Of a stretch of DNA of 64,000 nucleotides, positions 23,353 to 34,458 are shown piece after piece (the stretch's first letter is position 1; each line of letters starts with the position of its first letter). The stretch lies in the NCBI GenBank assembly GCA_042408215.1, contig JAYFMW010000003.1:256001-320000 (forward strand), written 5' to 3'. The position numbers and the translations under genes are program-made. The DNA comes from Microcoleus sp. (GTDB lineage Bacteria > Cyanobacteriota > Cyanobacteriia > Cyanobacteriales > Microcoleaceae). The notes under the pieces are model-generated. The model worked only from the letters and a program-made list of their open reading frames with translations. It did no database searches and was not told the DNA's origin.

Positions 23353-24555
23353 ATGGTTCAAAAAATTGGCATTCAAGGATTGTATTATATTGTTCATTTT
23401 AACAATATCCTTTCTATTTTAGAAAAGGGTATTATGTGTCACGAGTCGATCGAAAGTGAGGGATTGAATAACACGCCTATATACAATAGTCAAATAGTTG
23501 ATAGTCGTTCTAGAAGAATAGTTTATGACAATAAATCTTTGTGGAGTTTTGCTAATCTTTACTTTCAACCACGCAATGCAATGCTTTACTCAGTTATCAA
23601 TAAAACAGCCGTTCATCAAGTGGCTATTATCTGCATCAAAAAGAAAATATTAGATAGAAAAAAGATTTTTATTACTACAGGTAATGCTGCCAGTTCCGAT
23701 TCCCAAATCATTCCCATTGAGGAAAGTGAAAAGTTTTTACCTCAAATCAGGAAGGAAATAGATAAAACATGGTGGAATAATGAAGATGGGTCAAAAAGAA
23801 AAATGATGGCTGAATGCTTGGTTCCAGAACGGATTGCGCCAAGTTATATTCAAATGATTTATGTTGCTTGCGATCGCGCCAGAGAAGATTTAGGAAAACT
23901 GCTGCTTGCTTGTGACAAGCCTAGTATTTCTGAGATCCCTATTACTGTTGAACCTGAAAGATTTTTTCAACCAGTCTGGAGTGCTAGGCTTACTTCCAAG
24001 GTTTCTCTGATTCGTGGAGATATGTTTTTTTCAAGAATGCAAACTCTTACTGTTAGCGTTAATTGTGTGGGTGTCATGGGCAAAGGATTGGCATCAACAG
24101 CAAAAGATCGTTTTCCTGATGTATATGTCAGGTATGAAAAAGTGTGCAAAGATAAGAGTTTGCAGATAGGAAAACCATACTTATACAAACGTGAGTCATC
24201 GGTCACAGAACAATTAGCAGATCATACATTATTGCCTTCAGACAATGTTAACGACAACTATCAAACATGGTTTTTCTTGTTTCCTACAAAGAATCACTGG
24301 AGAAATAATTCAACTATTCTTGATATTGAGAATGGCTTGCAGTGGCTTGCTGAAAACTACAAAAATGAAGGGATAAAGTCCTTAGCAATCCCGGCACTTG
24401 GATGCGGACTTGGTGGTTTAGATTGGCGAGACGTTGGTCCTCTGATGTGTAAGTATTTGACTTCTATGGATATTCCTGTAGCCATATATTTACCATCCGA
24501 AGGAAAAATTTCAGATGAGTTAGTGTCACGCGATTTTTTGCTGTCTCAAGTATAG
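23353..24555 (+). CDS. DarT-like ssDNA ADP-ribosyltransferase (DUF4433) fused to a DarG-like macrodomain
   Basis: N-half: LYYIVHFNNILSILEKGI, LYFQPRNAMLY, TTGNAAS, MMAECLVP. C-half: GDMF...SVNCVGVMGKGLA...FPTKNHWR...SLAIPALGCGLGGLDW. Confidence 0.88.
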   Translation: MVQKIGIQGLYYIVHFNNILSILEKGIMCHESIESEGLNNTPIYNSQIVDSRSRRIVYDNKSLWSFANLYFQPRNAMLYSVINKTAVHQVAIICIKKKILDRKKIFITTGNAASSDSQIIPIEESEKFLPQIRKEIDKTWWNNEDGSKRKMMAECLVPERIAPSYIQMIYVACDRAREDLGKLLLACDKPSISEIPITVEPERFFQPVWSARLTSKVSLIRGDMFFSRMQTLTVSVNCVGVMGKGLASTAKDRFPDVYVRYEKVCKDKSLQIGKPYLYKRESSVTEQLADHTLLPSDNVNDNYQTWFFLFPTKNHWRNNSTILDIENGLQWLAENYKNEGIKSLAIPALGCGLGGLDWRDVGPLMCKYLTSMDIPVAIYLPSEGKISDELVSRDFLLSQV

Positions 24556-28746: not shown

Positions 28747-29553
28747 CTAAATTGTATCAGGATCGATGTTTAATTCTCGCAATTTAGCGGCCAGGCGATC
28801 GGCTCGTTGTTGAGCCAATTCTTTCTGCTGACGTTCTGAATCAGCTCGTTGTTGAGCCAATTCTTTCTGCTGACGTTCTGAATCAGCTCGTTGCATTTCC
28901 CTTTCCGTTCGTTGTTGAGCAAATTCTTTTTGCTGACGTTCTGAATCAGCCACCTCTTCAGGAGTAGGAACTAGCTCTCCATAATCGGTAAAAAATCGCA
29001 GTTTATTCTGATGAATTCCCAAATACAACTCCAGCTCGTCACTCCACAAATATCCTTGAGAATTCGGTGCTAGTGCTTGGTATTTACCATTCACCAAATG
29101 AAATCCCGCAAACTCTAACGTATAGGGATCGAACCAAAAATAGTCTGGGGTACGAAATGTGTCTTGATAGAGTTTTTTCTTAAATTCGCGATCGGTATTA
29201 GCTGTTGTCGGTGACAGCATTTCTACAATCACATTAGGGTATTTTCCATCTTCTTCCCAGACTACCCAGCTTTTCCGAGGTTTGCGTTCGGTTCCCAGTA
29301 CCACAAAAAAGTCTGGGCCTCGAAAGTCTTGCGATTTACGTTGATTCTGACTGTAATAAATCGTGAGATTGCCGGCAACATAAAAGTCGTTTCTATCTCG
29401 CCACAGCCAATCTAGACATTGGAGGAGTAAAATTATTTGTCGCAGATGCAGTTCAGTTTCCAAGGGAGGTTCGTCACTGTATAAATCGCCTTTCGGAAAG
29501 ATAACACGTTCTGGGATGTCTTGGGAAGTCGCTAATTCTGGGATGACGGACAT
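28747..29553 (-). CDS. Uma2 family endonuclease-fold protein, copy 1
   Basis: SDEPPLETELH, RGPDFFVV, YPNVIVEMLS, C-terminal 14-aa coiled repeats. Confidence 0.93.
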   Translation of the reverse strand: MSVIPELATSQDIPERVIFPKGDLYSDEPPLETELHLRQIILLLQCLDWLWRDRNDFYVAGNLTIYYSQNQRKSQDFRGPDFFVVLGTERKPRKSWVVWEEDGKYPNVIVEMLSPTTANTDREFKKKLYQDTFRTPDYFWFDPYTLEFAGFHLVNGKYQALAPNSQGYLWSDELELYLGIHQNKLRFFTDYGELVPTPEEVADSERQQKEFAQQRTEREMQRADSERQQKELAQQRADSERQQKELAQQRADRLAAKLRELNIDPDTI

Positions 29554-29649: not shown

Positions 29650-30456
29650 CTAAATTGTATCAGGATCGATGTTTAATTCTCGCAATTTAGCGGCCAGGCG
29701 ATCGGCTCGTTGTTGAGCCAATTCTTTCTGCTGACGTTCTGAATCAGCTCGTTGTTGAGCTAATTCTTTTTGCTGACGTTCTGAATCAGCTCGTTGCATT
29801 TCCCTTTCCGCTCGTTGTTGAGCAAATTCTTTTTGCTGACGTTCTGAATCAGCCACCTCTTCAGGAGTAGGAACTAGCTCTCCATAATCGGTAAAAAATC
29901 GCAGTTTATTCTGATGAATTCCCAAATACAACTCCAGCTCGTCACTCCACAAATATCCTTGAGAATTCGGTGCTAGTGCTTGGTATTTACCATTCACCAA
30001 ATGAAATCCCGCAAACTCTAACGTATAGGGATCGAACCAAAAATAGTCTGGGGTACGAAATGTGTCTTGATAGAGTTTTTTCTTAAATTCGCGATCGGTA
30101 TTAGCCGTTGTCGGTGACAGCATTTCTACAATCACATTAGGGTATTTTCCATCTTCTTCCCAGACTACCCAGCTTTTCCGAGGTTTGCGTTCGGTTCCCA
30201 GTACCACAAAAAAGTCTGGGCCTCGAAAGTCTTGCGATTTACGTTGATTCTGACTGTAATAAATCGTGAGATTGCCGGCAACATAAAAGTCGTTTCTATC
30301 TCGCCACAGCCAATCTAGACATTGGAGGAGTAAAATTATTTGTCGCAGATGCAGTTCAGTTTCCAAGGGAGGTTCGTCACTGTATAAATCGCCTTTCGGA
30401 AAGATAACACGTTCTGGGATGTCTTGGGAAGTCGCTAATTCTGGGATGACGGACAT
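29650..30456 (-). CDS. Uma2 family endonuclease-fold protein, copy 2
   Basis: Identical to copy 1 except one residue (T/A). Confidence 0.93.
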   Translation of the reverse strand: MSVIPELATSQDIPERVIFPKGDLYSDEPPLETELHLRQIILLLQCLDWLWRDRNDFYVAGNLTIYYSQNQRKSQDFRGPDFFVVLGTERKPRKSWVVWEEDGKYPNVIVEMLSPTTANTDREFKKKLYQDTFRTPDYFWFDPYTLEFAGFHLVNGKYQALAPNSQGYLWSDELELYLGIHQNKLRFFTDYGELVPTPEEVADSERQQKEFAQQRAEREMQRADSERQQKELAQQRADSERQQKELAQQRADRLAAKLRELNIDPDTI

Positions 30457-30568: not shown

Positions 30569-31657
30569 TTATTTACCGTCAGTTGATTTGAGAGCAGCCA
30601 GAATTTCCGGTCGTTTCATCCGTGCGTAGCCGCGCAATTTCCGCTCTTTCCCGATCGCCTTCAAGCGTCTCAGCGACAGACTGTCGTAGTCTTCCAGCGG
30701 GGATTCAAACTGGAACTCCAACTGCAACTGCGGTAGCTGAGGTTTCGCCTGCGCCTTCGACTGCTTCTTAGGCTGGGTTTTTGACAGGGTTTTCGCCTTG
30801 ATCTCTGGCTGTATTCCTGAGTTATTGGCCACGGCTCCTAGTTGGCTGCGGACTGTTGCAATTTGATTTTTCAGGTCGAATTCTACGTCTTTGATTGTGT
30901 CCGCAACGAACTGATTAATTATTGCGACTGTGCGTTCTAATTTGATTGACAGCAATTTCTCCAATTCATCCAACTGTGTTAACGCACCTTCAAGATTCAT
31001 CTCATAAATAACCGCAGAGCTCGGAGGGATATCGCTGCCAGATTGCTCAATTTTTTTAGCCAATTTATCTACCTTTTCGTTAAATGTTTGTTCAACTTTT
31101 TCTATCGAACCCTTAATCTGTTCTATTTTGTCACCCTCGAACTTCTGCTCAGTTAGAGATTTTACTTGTTTTTTGAGCAGGTCTTCATTTTTTTTAACAG
31201 ATTGTTCTATTTGTTTTGTTAGACTCTCTATCTTTTTTTGAAATGAGCGCTCAAATTGTTGCAGTAGAGTCTCAATTTGTGCATTTTTTTGAGTCGGTTG
31301 CGGAGCTAAAAGTTCCATTTCTGCTTGAGCAGCAACTACTTCCTCGTCGCTCATTTCAAAAACCCAAGCCCACATTTGTTCAAGGCCGAGTTCTTTAGCA
31401 ACGATACACCAATCAGCGCCGCAGACAACTTCGTATTCTTCTTCGTTGCTGTAAGCTTCAGTCCGGCGTACAATTAAAGGAATCAAGTTGCTCCCTTGTT
31501 CGATTAGACTTCTCCTGAGAGCTTCGCGGCGATCGCGAGGAATTTCCCCCCGCTGAGGATATGGTATCGCAATTTGGGAAGTGTAAATTTGACTGTGACT
31601 AATTGGCTTAATCCGCAAATATTCAATTATTCGGTTTTGATCTTGCGATCGATCCAT
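30569..31657 (-). CDS. Divergent ParB/Srx-like N-terminal domain, coiled coil, and C-terminal Rho_N-like (HEH) domain
   Basis: LRRSLIEQGSNLIPLIVRR...YEVVCG...AKELGLEQMWAWV; C-terminus YDSLSLRRLKAIGKERKLRGYARMKRPEILAAL. Confidence 0.75.
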   Translation of the reverse strand: MDRSQDQNRIIEYLRIKPISHSQIYTSQIAIPYPQRGEIPRDRREALRRSLIEQGSNLIPLIVRRTEAYSNEEEYEVVCGADWCIVAKELGLEQMWAWVFEMSDEEVVAAQAEMELLAPQPTQKNAQIETLLQQFERSFQKKIESLTKQIEQSVKKNEDLLKKQVKSLTEQKFEGDKIEQIKGSIEKVEQTFNEKVDKLAKKIEQSGSDIPPSSAVIYEMNLEGALTQLDELEKLLSIKLERTVAIINQFVADTIKDVEFDLKNQIATVRSQLGAVANNSGIQPEIKAKTLSKTQPKKQSKAQAKPQLPQLQLEFQFESPLEDYDSLSLRRLKAIGKERKLRGYARMKRPEILAALKSTDGK

Positions 31658-31909
31658 CTTCTTACAAGTCCCCTTTTGTCATTGAAATCAGGTGTTTTAG
31701 GTATTTATGTATATCTACGCGGTTTTTGTGGGGCGACATCCCTGGCGATCGACAAAGTTACTGCAATTCCTAAAACAAGCGACTGCGATCAGTTTAACTG
31801 GCTGGGGGACACCAATGATACATCGCTTAACTCATCTTTACTTTTTTTAGCGTAGAGACTCACTCGGCTAACGTTCCCAGTGGGCACAGGGCCTGTTTTA
31901 TTGACCCGG

Positions 31910-31991
31910 AGATCCCCCCTAGCCCCCCTTAACAAGGGGGGGACAAGAGCATTCAAAGTCCCCCTTATTAAGGCGGGATTTAGGGGGATCT
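31910..31991. repeat. CCCCCTAGCCCCCCTT...GGGATTTAGGGGGATC palindromic repeat
   Basis: Same core as at 6240-6325, 12582-12663, 37678-37725 (partial), 53445-53560. Confidence 0.85.
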
Positions 31992-32038
31992 GAACCTGAT
32001 TGAAGAGAGCCAGAAAAAACACGCCACAGGACTTAATT

Positions 32039-32947
32039 TTATGAGTATTTGTGCCACTTGTCAATGATTTTAATCATGGTTTTGTCGGTTAACCCTTTAA
32101 CACGTTCCACCACATTTGCAAAGGACACAAATGGCCGCACATCTCGCTCTTTGAGGATTATTTGGATTACTGGAAGCTTCAATCCCGCATCTTTCAAAGT
32201 CGTCGATAATTGAATTTTATCGAGAGTATTGAGTGCTGACAACAGTGACATTGATTCCGAAGTTACTTTTTCAACCACCTGTTTTTCGGGTGGTTGCTCT
32301 GGTTTCAATTCATTAATTCTGTTGGCTAGCCCAGCTTCAATTAACTGATTTACTTCTTGTAAAATTCTGTTTTCAAATTCTTGTATACTCTGTGCTAACA
32401 CCTGTTTTTCACGGGCGTACTCAGCTTTCAATTCATTAATTTGACTCGCAAACTGGGCTTCAATATTTGTCAGCCGCTGTTCTAAATTGGATGATGGTTG
32501 GGGAGTTTCGTTGTCATAAGATTTAGGGACTTCGACCAAAGAAACCGGGTTTTTGATTGAATCTGCGGGCTGCGATAAAGTATTTTCGTAGAAAAACCCG
32601 GTTTCTGGGTTTTCAACTAAATTGTCATTTTTGGCAGGTTTTCTCAGGGCTTGAACTTGCTCTAGCAGAAGTTCTTCATTTTCCGGCTCAAGAATAAATG
32701 CTCCGATTGTCTCGCCTTTCTTAGGGTTGATTTCCCTGGCTTTCGCCGCCGCATAGTATTCAAAGTCTCCGTCTACTATCTCGTAGGCGTCCATCCCGTT
32801 GCGACGGAGAACTATGGGGTTGATCAATCCTCCTAATTCTAAAATTAGTTGTGCGACTTTCTCCAAATCGCGATCGGCAAAATTGTCACGGGGAACTTTA
32901 GATGTAATCTTTTTTACAGCTACCAACGACGGGGATAATTTTTGCAT
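32039..32947 (-). CDS. Divergent ParB-like N-terminal domain, coiled coil, and C-terminal HhH-like domain
   Basis: LILELGGLINPIVLRR...YEIVDGDFEYYAA; C-terminus RPFVSFANVVERVKGLTDKT; start overlaps the parA stop. Confidence 0.75.
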   Translation of the reverse strand: MQKLSPSLVAVKKITSKVPRDNFADRDLEKVAQLILELGGLINPIVLRRNGMDAYEIVDGDFEYYAAAKAREINPKKGETIGAFILEPENEELLLEQVQALRKPAKNDNLVENPETGFFYENTLSQPADSIKNPVSLVEVPKSYDNETPQPSSNLEQRLTNIEAQFASQINELKAEYAREKQVLAQSIQEFENRILQEVNQLIEAGLANRINELKPEQPPEKQVVEKVTSESMSLLSALNTLDKIQLSTTLKDAGLKLPVIQIILKERDVRPFVSFANVVERVKGLTDKTMIKIIDKWHKYS

Positions 32948-34458
32948 TATTTCTCACCTATCTTTTCCAAAACTTCCATTGCTAATACTTCAAACTCTTG
33001 GGATGCGATTGAATCTGGCTTAAAGTCTAACACCGAAATGGGGTCGGCAATTTCCATATCTCCGAATATTTGAGTTTGTTCTGCACACTTAGCCAAATCA
33101 TCTCTTTCATAAATTACGCTTTCCATAATTTCCATACCGTAACGTTTGGGAATTGCATCCCTCCGCCTAGGCAAACTGTACTGTATAAATTTACCGTTAG
33201 TTGAGATTTTACAAGGAAGTACACCTAAAACCTGTAGAGGATTTTTGCCGATTTGTTTCTTAAATCCATTAACTTTTTTGATAAAATCTTTGACATTAAT
33301 TAATCCTTGATTCGCAAAAGGCTTTAAGTCAGAAGGAATAATTAAATAATCGGCTGCAATCAGGGCAACTCTGGCATAAAAATTTAAAGACGGTGGCGTA
33401 TCAATCAATACAATATCATATTTATCTTGTACTTCTGCTAGTTTCTGTATCAGAATCATTCTACTGTAATCCAGTGAATTTAGTTCTGTTTCATATTGCA
33501 TTAAATCAATATGAGAAGGAATTACATCTATTGCTGGAGTGCAAAAATTAGACTTTCTAGCTACTTCTGATATTGAGTAAAAATCCTCTGACTGTAAGAT
33601 GTGCAGAATATTGTTTTGTTTTAAATCATCATCTTCTTCGTCATCAAATTTGACTAAACCTGTCGCAAAGGTTGTATTAGCTTGACTGTCTAAGTCTATC
33701 ACCAAGACTCTTTTACATTGCTTGCTGAGGGCGGCGGCTAAATTGACTACGGTTGTAGTTTTGCCGACACCGCCTTTATTGTGATATACTGCAATGATTT
33801 TCATGGTATTTTGACTGGTTTGAAAGACTAAATCTAAGGGAATTTCTGGTTTAATTTCAGTATTAATTGGCAAAATTTCCGGGACTTTTTCCGGTTCTGA
33901 GATTTGACTTGGCTCAGGTTCTGCGGTGGCGGGATTATTTAGCTGTACTGGTACTTCGCTCGTTAACTGAGGACTAACTAAATTATTTTTACTATGTTCT
34001 AGTTCGAGATTTTCGGGGGTTTTTATTGGTCTTAAACTATCTCTGCCAATGAAAGCAATAATTTCATCTATTCTGGTTTCAACTTCTTGGCCAGAGCAAT
34101 TAAATACTAGCTTAATCTCTGAGGCGACTCTTTCGTAAATTCTAATTTCTTTAGCATTGGTTATCAATCCGTAGCGAATGCTTAAACTTGTTAAGTAACG
34201 CTTCAGTCTCCTGATGTGGCGGTCTAATTTTTCCTTCGGATGTTTCGCCTCAATTACTACACTCATCGGCGAGTCTGCATCGATGACTATTGGGATAACT
34301 TGGGTGGCAAAGGATAGGAAGTCTAGACGAATATTCCCAAATGCTATTTCTTGGTGCCAATTGTCGGGTGTATAGCCTAACTTGGGTAATAAATAACTGA
34401 CAATGAGTTTGCTTTCAACTTCGCTTTCGTTGCGGCAGTTATTGGGATTAAAAGTCAA
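32947..34458 (-). CDS. HsdR_N-like PD-(D/E)xK nuclease domain fused to a ParA/Soj ATPase
   Basis: NESEVESKLI..YLLPKLGY...RLDF...VIEAKHP...YGLITNA; then KIIAVYHNKGGVGKTT, LVIDLDSQAN, LIDTPPS. Confidence 0.88.
   Translation of the reverse strand: MTFNPNNCRNESEVESKLIVSYLLPKLGYTPDNWHQEIAFGNIRLDFLSFATQVIPIVIDADSPMSVVIEAKHPKEKLDRHIRRLKRYLTSLSIRYGLITNAKEIRIYERVASEIKLVFNCSGQEVETRIDEIIAFIGRDSLRPIKTPENLELEHSKNNLVSPQLTSEVPVQLNNPATAEPEPSQISEPEKVPEILPINTEIKPEIPLDLVFQTSQNTMKIIAVYHNKGGVGKTTTVVNLAAALSKQCKRVLVIDLDSQANTTFATGLVKFDDEEDDDLKQNNILHILQSEDFYSISEVARKSNFCTPAIDVIPSHIDLMQYETELNSLDYSRMILIQKLAEVQDKYDIVLIDTPPSLNFYARVALIAADYLIIPSDLKPFANQGLINVKDFIKKVNGFKKQIGKNPLQVLGVLPCKISTNGKFIQYSLPRRRDAIPKRYGMEIMESVIYERDDLAKCAEQTQIFGDMEIADPISVLDFKPDSIASQEFEVLAMEVLEKIGEK

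Follow-up and report, generated by a model that had tools for sequence, protein, structure and literature searches.

A REase-ParA/ParB-like cassette of the effector-ParAB type with an accessory ParB-like gene in Microcoleus

We analyzed a 64,000-nucleotide stretch of the Microcoleus sp. assembly GCA_042408215.1 (contig JAYFMW010000003.1, positions 256,001 to 320,000 of the forward strand; hereafter, the window), which is part of a 539-kb contig in a genome of 7.4 Mb that is 99.98% complete (G000; G and L numbers are our handles for genomes and loci). Between positions 30,569 and 34,458, the window carries three minus-strand genes, of which gene 1 encodes a restriction endonuclease (REase)-type domain fused to a ParA ATPase, and genes 2 and 3 encode ParB-like proteins. 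Genes 1 and 2 are a member of effector-ParAB, a group described by prediction, and gene 3 makes the locus a lineage-specific variant. The conserved unit is a ParA with one cognate ParB, not three genes, and the trio is a mosaic of a pair of one subtype (A) and a gene from the other version of the module (subtype B). The two-gene cassette is predicted to act, probably by ATP-switched coating or cutting of DNA, against mobile elements. An earlier sequence-only reading of this DNA had proposed an undescribed three-gene system and knew of no characterization of such an architecture; that claim does not stand, because the architecture has already been described computationally, an outcome which that reading had itself named as counting against it.

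The description is a computational preprint (Li, Burroughs, and Aravind, bioRxiv 10.64898/2026.10.19.760177), the only item in which a full-text literature search found the term. Its main text presents effector-ParAB as operonic ParA-ParB pairs enriched in multicellular bacteria such as cyanobacteria, in which the ParB is likely inactive and has a helix-hairpin-helix (HhH) or Rho-N helix-extension-helix (HeH) tail in place of the helix-turn-helix (HTH), and the ParA carries an N-terminal effector, most often an REase and otherwise an RloB-like TOPRIM, caspase, HEPN, or phosphoesterase domain. The action proposed there is that invader DNA is coated, with the effector as a back-up, and the immune role is a prediction.

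Domain architecture of the three genes

The three minus-strand open reading frames (ORFs) are co-oriented, and the first two are translationally coupled, as previously noted, the TAA of gene 1 and the ATG of gene 2 overlapping by 1 base at 32947. The features of the locus are as follows.

32947..34458, minus strand: gene 1, REase-ParA fusion of subtype A, 503 aa, with a TTG start (ATG in orthologues)
34039..34455, minus strand: HsdR-N-type PD-(D/E)xK head of gene 1, with E11/E13, D46, and E70-x-K72, and with R84 and Y88 at the QxxxY positions (PF13588, 27.7 bits)
33805..34038, minus strand: variable, Pro/Glu-rich linker of gene 1 (dN/dS 0.55)
32950..33804, minus strand: ParA ATPase domain of gene 1, with Walker A, DxD..Q, and Walker B all intact and R452 conserved
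32039..32947, minus strand: gene 2, cognate subtype A ParB-like protein, 302 aa, with a ParB fold at aa 1-105 (GDFE in place of GxRR), a long helix at aa 153-214, and a ComEA/DUF655-like HhH tail at aa 232-302
32540..32606, no strand assigned: copy of a dispersed repeat, in frame within gene 2 (about 280 blastn matches in G000)
31658..32038, no strand assigned: 381-bp gap between genes 2 and 3, containing a second dispersed repeat, a palindromic one, at about 31888-31997 (as many as about 480 matches by blastn in G000)
30569..31657, minus strand: gene 3, orphan ParB-like protein of the subtype B clade, 362 aa, with a ParB fold at aa 8-119 (GADW), two long helical segments at aa 123-278, a disordered basic linker, and a weak Rho-N/HeH tail match at aa 326-357

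The N-terminal head of gene 1 matches the Pfam family HSDR_N_2 at aa 17-112 above its cut-off of 25 bits and displays the nuclease motifs E11/E13, D46 (within RLDF), and E70-x-K72. The C-terminal part matches AAA_31 (aa 219-398, E 5.6e-56) and contains all ParA motifs (Walker A N227-KGGVGKTT, D255-x-D257-x-Q259, and Walker B D348/D353), so that the union of a nuclease domain with an intact deviant Walker-A ATPase, read earlier from the letters, is confirmed. Its closest solved relatives are Soj/ParA proteins, with Soj itself as the top match (E 1.8e-20). Residue R452, which at least 90% of the 51 ParA sequences of subtype A share, presumably sits where Soj has a DNA-binding arginine. Nuclease motifs I, II, and III were located in 33/34, 33/34, and 32/34 subtype A heads and in 12/14, 13/14, and 12/14 subtype B heads, respectively, the unlocated ones including one helicase-type head and failures of the search pattern. 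Retention in nearly all heads means that these catalytic residues are not generally degenerate among homologues, which the sequence-only reading had listed as a way in which it could fail.

Both remaining proteins have ParB-like N-termini that lack the GxRR motif, as had been read from the sequence, Box II being GDFE in gene 2 and GADW in gene 3. Gene 2 matches ParB_N with 30.2 bits (cut-off 26.3), and gene 3 with 24.7 bits over the whole protein, just below the cut-off, and 26.5 bits in another search; with TIGR00180 (cut-off 58.45), gene 3 scores 28.2 bits and gene 2 has no match. The predicted models have the ParB fold: that of gene 2 resembles KorB (Z 10.5, rmsd 3.4, 91 residues aligned) and PadC (Z 10.5, rmsd 3.1, 94 aligned), that of gene 3 PadC (Z 12.1, rmsd 2.7, 97 aligned) and KorB (Z 12.0, rmsd 2.4, 94 aligned), and Foldseek matches both to Noc/ParB. 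No HTH is present in either model, its place being occupied by the long helices that follow the ParB fold. The proposal of a coiled coil with a nucleic acid-binding tail instead of the HTH holds for the helices of both proteins and for the HhH tail of gene 2, which at aa 232-298 resembles ComEA (Z 6.7, rmsd 2.4, 61 aligned; middling scores of Z 6.7-7.0 across ComEA/DUF655); the gene 3 tail is assigned from a Rho_N match of 20.7 bits, below the cut-off of 24.9, and from source names. GxxR is absent from all 72 ParB-like sequences in which the main pattern located the motif; of 5 further sequences that it missed, 3 are of the GD type by a second pattern and 2 were left unread. In the ParB folds so far tested, the arginine is needed for nucleotide binding, which an R-to-A change is reported to abolish (bioRxiv 10.1101/2025.10.10.680097), and the gene 2 ParB is predicted to be catalytically inactive. 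The ParA-binding motif LG-R/K-GL was not found in the ParB-like proteins by motif search. A predicted complex of the gene 2 and gene 3 products scored 0.01; the controls were not folded, and the result was counted neither way.

The sequence-only reading had overlooked both the 381-bp spacer with its genome-wide repeat and the second repeat family lying in frame inside gene 2. The two families of short dispersed repeats have hundreds of matches each in G000, and the one inside gene 2 also occurs within other proteins; shorter gene 2 orthologues, of 235-239 aa, are present in the genus. Promoter-like sites numbered 7, against 9.2 expected by chance, and an 11/12 site at 32064-32036 was therefore not used. 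In four RNA runs, 5-16% of sampled words were present.

Cognate pairs of two subtypes and an accessory ParB-like gene

Pairing of ParA with ParB is strict, pairs are exchanged whole at fixed slots, and heads and tails are exchanged as well. Relatives of gene 2 lie in loci with a ParA that closely resembles gene 1 (subtype A). Relatives of gene 3 from outside the genus are mostly found with another REase-ParA, whose identity to gene 1 is about 30% (subtype B). The subtypes separate in the ParB tree (support 98/95 and 95/89), built without 8 sequences whose motif was not located and without 7 loci of the same genus, and in the ParA tree (SH-aLRT 99 and 100), built after 27 loci had been thinned and 3 rows removed; the deep branching order of the subtypes is unreliable, since long branches meet there. 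In the loci fetched, many of them kin, an A-type ParB lies directly downstream of 51/52 subtype A ParA genes and a B-type ParB downstream of 21/21 subtype B ParA genes, with no mixed pair among these 73 genes; the sole exception, G022, nevertheless has a gene 2 match. In five genera, the same flanks enclose an A pair in some genomes and a B pair in others (G414 versus G442/G454; G467 versus G480; G107 versus G160; G246 versus G322/G351/G354; G317 versus G307/G346/G350). Across the order, the A-type ParB was detected in 133/301 genomes and the B-type in 33/301, by searches that score only a few candidates per genome and may miss genes. Outside the family, A accompanies B in 1 of the 14 genomes that carry B (2 if a weak fragment is counted), compared with 5.8 expected, kin not being independent.

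Over 11 genomes, mean dS is 0.52 in the ParA domain and 0.53 in the gene 2 N-domain, versus 0.24-0.31 in the flanking genes, and the rank correlation of these two domains with the flanks is 0.36-0.73; core dS that is roughly twice that of the flanks and less correlated with it fits repeated exchange of the ParA-ParB core. The nuclease head (dS 0.29) tracks the flanks, as does gene 3 (mean dS 0.24, rank correlation 0.76-0.89). Comparison of the window with 10 genomes gave dN/dS of 0.09-0.34 in all three genes outside the linker, indicating purifying selection.

Within a single ParA clade (99% SH-aLRT), the head may be RloB plus REase (P0112), REase plus SF1 helicase (6 of the 120 matches listed; G128, G200), or absent (G202, G017, G310), and ParB tails differ among homologues within each subtype. 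Two loci (L091:6513-9707 and L073:7777-10974) encode a subtype A ParA of about 1065 aa fused to a DUF559/MTES_1575-like nuclease and an SF1 helicase, a head that is split in G200 and is not named in the main text of the preprint (bioRxiv 10.64898/2026.10.19.760177). G000 itself has two more operons of an REase-ParA with an arginine-less ParB-like protein (G000:C3:189054-191215 and G000:C17:233753-235655), which represent further subtypes and keep the Q of QxxxY, making three such operons altogether. A separate 294-aa ParA, encoded at L077:12636-13517 and at 9 further loci, frequently lies in divergent orientation upstream of an A or B pair, near a gene that we take to encode isoleucyl-tRNA synthetase; it was not found in G000.

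Gene 3 is an accessory ParB-like gene of the subtype B clade, since in the family its neighbour may be a pair of either subtype or no pair at all. At the family site, downstream of desaturase and threonine synthase genes (labeled by motif reading), the first slot is either empty or filled by a pair of subtype A or B. The long gene 3 type with the Rho-N tail follows a B pair in G320, G301, and G317, follows an A pair in the source genus and in G307, G346, G349, and G350, and has no pair nearby in G212, G329, and G337. Gene 3 of G317 clusters with that of its A-bearing congeners; therefore, the pair was exchanged and gene 3 stayed. In the source genome, gene 3 is not coupled to a ParA of its own subtype, as it lies 381 bp from gene 2 and G000 contains no subtype B ParA, the best tblastn match being gene 1 at 28-30% identity. 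Within the source genus, the gene 1 ParA is present in 55/55 other genomes and gene 3 is intact in 54/55; the trio is adjacent in 48 of them, two opposite-strand transporter genes precede gene 3 in 3, the genes are on different contigs in 3, and gene 3 is absent from 1. Stops disrupt gene 3 in six genomes of genus g5 that have the A-type ParA, G404 has the pair and lacks gene 3, and 113-114 of 115 genomes outside the family have the A pair without a B-type ParB. Two simpler origins for gene 3 were considered. That it is a duplicate of gene 2 was rejected, as the two have only the ParB fold in common (25% identity over 77 columns) and belong to separate clades; that it is a simple leftover of a lost subtype B ParA had to be modified, given that G320, G301, and G317 hold a complete B pair plus gene 3.

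A divergently transcribed module adjoins gene 3 and the effector-ParAB slot in several genera. It comprises an RcaD-like protein, one or two AAA ATPases, and an exonuclease-PDDEXK-FtsK protein (L071:3590-9257; also L074, L108-L112, L121, L124, L126-L130, and L145) and was not found in G000. The FtsK part matches the PADLOC model SspH (E 1e-68), and RcaD/RcaG are described as phycobiliprotein regulators (PMC2799420); the context of the module hints at a role in DNA defence.

Candidate roles of the cassette

We favor a defensive role for the gene 1-gene 2 pair because its alleles and heads are exchangeable, its distribution is patchy, G000 has three such operons, and its gammaproteobacterial relatives have defence neighbours: AbiL, NsnA/PD-T4-2-like, HEPN, PDC-M07, and HEC-01 genes surround the two subtype A loci retrieved from Gammaproteobacteria. 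Of the earlier suggestion of a surveillance system against phages and plasmids, action against mobile elements thus remains the best guess, and the single, novel three-part system falls away. In Candidatus Halobeggiatoa (L146:3674-10641), an AbiLii/RloB domain forms the N-terminal part of the subtype A ParA fusion and an AbiLi ATPase gene lies directly upstream, so that two defence systems are merged.

ParA proteins form ATP-dependent dimers that bind DNA without sequence specificity. ATP-driven dimerization of the gene 1 product would accordingly bring two nuclease heads together on coated DNA. Gene 2, without phosphate-binding arginines, may be a nucleotide-independent coiled-coil dimer that holds DNA via its HhH tail and gates where its cognate ParA loads or unloads. 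Incoming phage or plasmid DNA would thus be coated and possibly nicked; coating may do most of the work, with a weak or conditional nuclease in reserve. Gene 3 would function in the absence of a subtype B ParA, either as a nucleic acid-binding protein that has been domesticated or as an additional sensor. If the pair does defend against mobile DNA, it would be a case of a partition machine that works without CTP as an immune device, and one that may be a barrier to genetic work in these cyanobacteria.

Several observations weigh against defence by DNA cleavage or against defence altogether. The QxxxY glutamine is replaced by K/R in 31/34 subtype A heads (R84 in gene 1) and kept in 12/14 subtype B heads; in EcoR124I, Q179K is reported to abolish cleavage and Q179A to halve its rate (PMC2475608). 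Given these substitutions, the subtype A nuclease is perhaps weakened and may be weak, conditional, or differently wired, with the proviso that the comparison spans distant enzymes. Of the 120 longer homologues listed, 6 bear the helicase head; among the remaining 114, with heads of the HsdR type, 7 look degenerate by eye, and some ParA genes of the clade carry no head. The core domains have dN/dS of 0.09-0.15, similar to the flanking genes, and the pair is near fixation in the genus beside housekeeping genes; the site in the genus is not a defence island but a fixed chromosomal one next to housekeeping genes, in the window and in 10/10 loci fetched. No gene for self-marking, such as a methyltransferase, lies in the cluster, the PADLOC models do not cover the pair and gave only short Walker A, coiled-coil, and weak matches among the three proteins, and literature searches found no experiment on any effector-ParAB member. 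Finally, the only ParB_N matches in G000 are three, all arginine-less and none canonical. As for mobile DNA itself, plasmid records gave no match to gene 1 at E 1e-30, and 36 phage matches are all below 60% identity, none covering 80% of the protein.

The absence of a canonical ParB from G000 leaves room for a nucleoid or housekeeping role. We regard it as unlikely that the pair and gene 3 were domesticated to organize or position the multi-copy chromosomes or nucleoid, replacing the missing ParABS with the nuclease head silenced, even though the near fixation, fixed synteny, purifying selection, and Q-to-K/R change would all suit this, as would the lack of matches to the parS consensus patterns tried. 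Such a function sits poorly with whole-pair swaps, losses and decay in relatives, presence of the pair in under half of the genomes of the order, swapping of effector heads, the gammaproteobacterial defence neighbours, and retention of the core nuclease residues.

A more speculative proposal, to which we give a small chance, is that the A and B cassettes are incompatible alleles that displace each other at fixed slots, each nuclease-ParA being restrained only by its cognate nucleotide-blind ParB, and that gene 3, an orphan ParB of subtype B, has been retained over tens of species to provide cross-immunity or to act as a second sensor that broadens recognition by the A pair; if true, a partition machine has been turned into a polymorphic toxin-immunity locus. 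A related account, which we hold improbable, is addiction with orphan immunity, in which pairs swap whole because a toxic REase-ParA must be held by its own ParB-like partner and gene 3 is the antidote to incoming subtype B cassettes. Translational coupling, the lack of mixed pairs, the rarity of A and B in one genome outside the family, and the persistence of ParB-like genes without a ParA in G212, G329, G337, and G327 are what it would predict; however, G059 combines an intact ParA with a frameshifted ParB (possibly an assembly error), gene 3 would be redundant beside the complete B pairs of G320, G301, and G317, and it has decayed beside A pairs in genus g5. Least probable is the obligate three-protein system first proposed, with genes 2 and 3 as a heteromeric ParB-like partner of gene 1: co-orientation and adjacency in most of the genus, an intact gene 3 under purifying selection without a subtype B ParA, and long helices in both ParB-like proteins speak for it, but gene 3 belongs to the other clade, is indifferent to which pair, if any, lies upstream, follows the flanks rather than genes 1-2 in dS, is split off in 3 genomes, decayed in relatives, and missing from G404, and nearly all A-bearing genomes outside the family lack a B-type ParB.

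Elsewhere in the window, a Uma2-family gene pair (268 aa each; 28747-29553 and 29650-30456) is a near-perfect 903-bp tandem duplication, and a single 400-aa ORF at 23353-24555 encodes DarT fused to a Macro (DarG-like) domain.

Comparison with known systems

The locus shares with ParABS (Soj/Spo0J, and Noc, KorB, and PadC) the ParA ATPase, the N-terminal ParB fold, and the coupled parA-parB order. It is not ordinary ParABS, as recognized from the outset: genes 2 and 3 lack GxxR, LG-R/K-GL, and the HTH, and the ParA bears a nuclease head. In G000, three chromosomal parS consensus patterns had no match and a loose fourth had two, a search that other centromere sequences would escape.

With the nuclease of EcoR124I HsdR, the head of gene 1 shares PD-(D/E)xK motifs I-III and the Tyr of QxxxY; the Q corresponds to R84 and is kept in subtype B and in the two other G000 paralogues. 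Unlike in type I restriction, the HsdR helicase, HsdM, and HsdS are absent from gene 1 and its neighbours.

ParA-HeH systems, one member of which is cited in the preprint as a tested anti-phage system of a Salmonella prophage (bioRxiv 10.64898/2026.10.19.760177), couple a ConB1 ParA to an HeH-bearing partner and a nuclease effector; they differ, as presented there, in that the partner has no ParB fold and a HEPN or NucS-like effector is encoded by a gene of its own. Two further G000 loci resemble the other ParA immune pairs of the preprint's main text, namely, a ParA followed by a RiboL-PSP-HEPN gene (G000:C30:442481-444137) and a ParA followed by a 151-aa protein without a Pfam match (G000:C20:202847-204162).

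The closest correspondence is with effector-ParAB itself. Genes 1-2 share its operonic pairing, with a 1-base overlap and a downstream cognate ParB, and the REase head N-terminal to ParA; the gene 1 clade shares the variable N-terminal effector, with RloB as an alternative head; and gene 2 shares the predicted inactivity of ParB and the HhH tail in place of the HTH. Motifs reported for the ConB1 clade agree with gene 1 in the N before and V within Walker A and in the Q after DxD, the placement in the authors' tree being compared by motif only. According to the preprint, nucleotide binding may persist in ParB, whereas genes 2 and 3 have acidic residues at the arginine positions. Its main text presents one ParB and makes no mention of subtypes, allele swaps, a second ParB, a helicase head, or K/R in QxxxY. 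To this 2026 prediction, the Microcoleus locus adds testable detail that goes beyond that main text: two cognate-paired subtypes, whole-pair swaps at identical flanks, a candidate nuclease-tuning Q-to-K/R change, and an orphan ParB that is fixed throughout a widespread genus of filamentous cyanobacteria.

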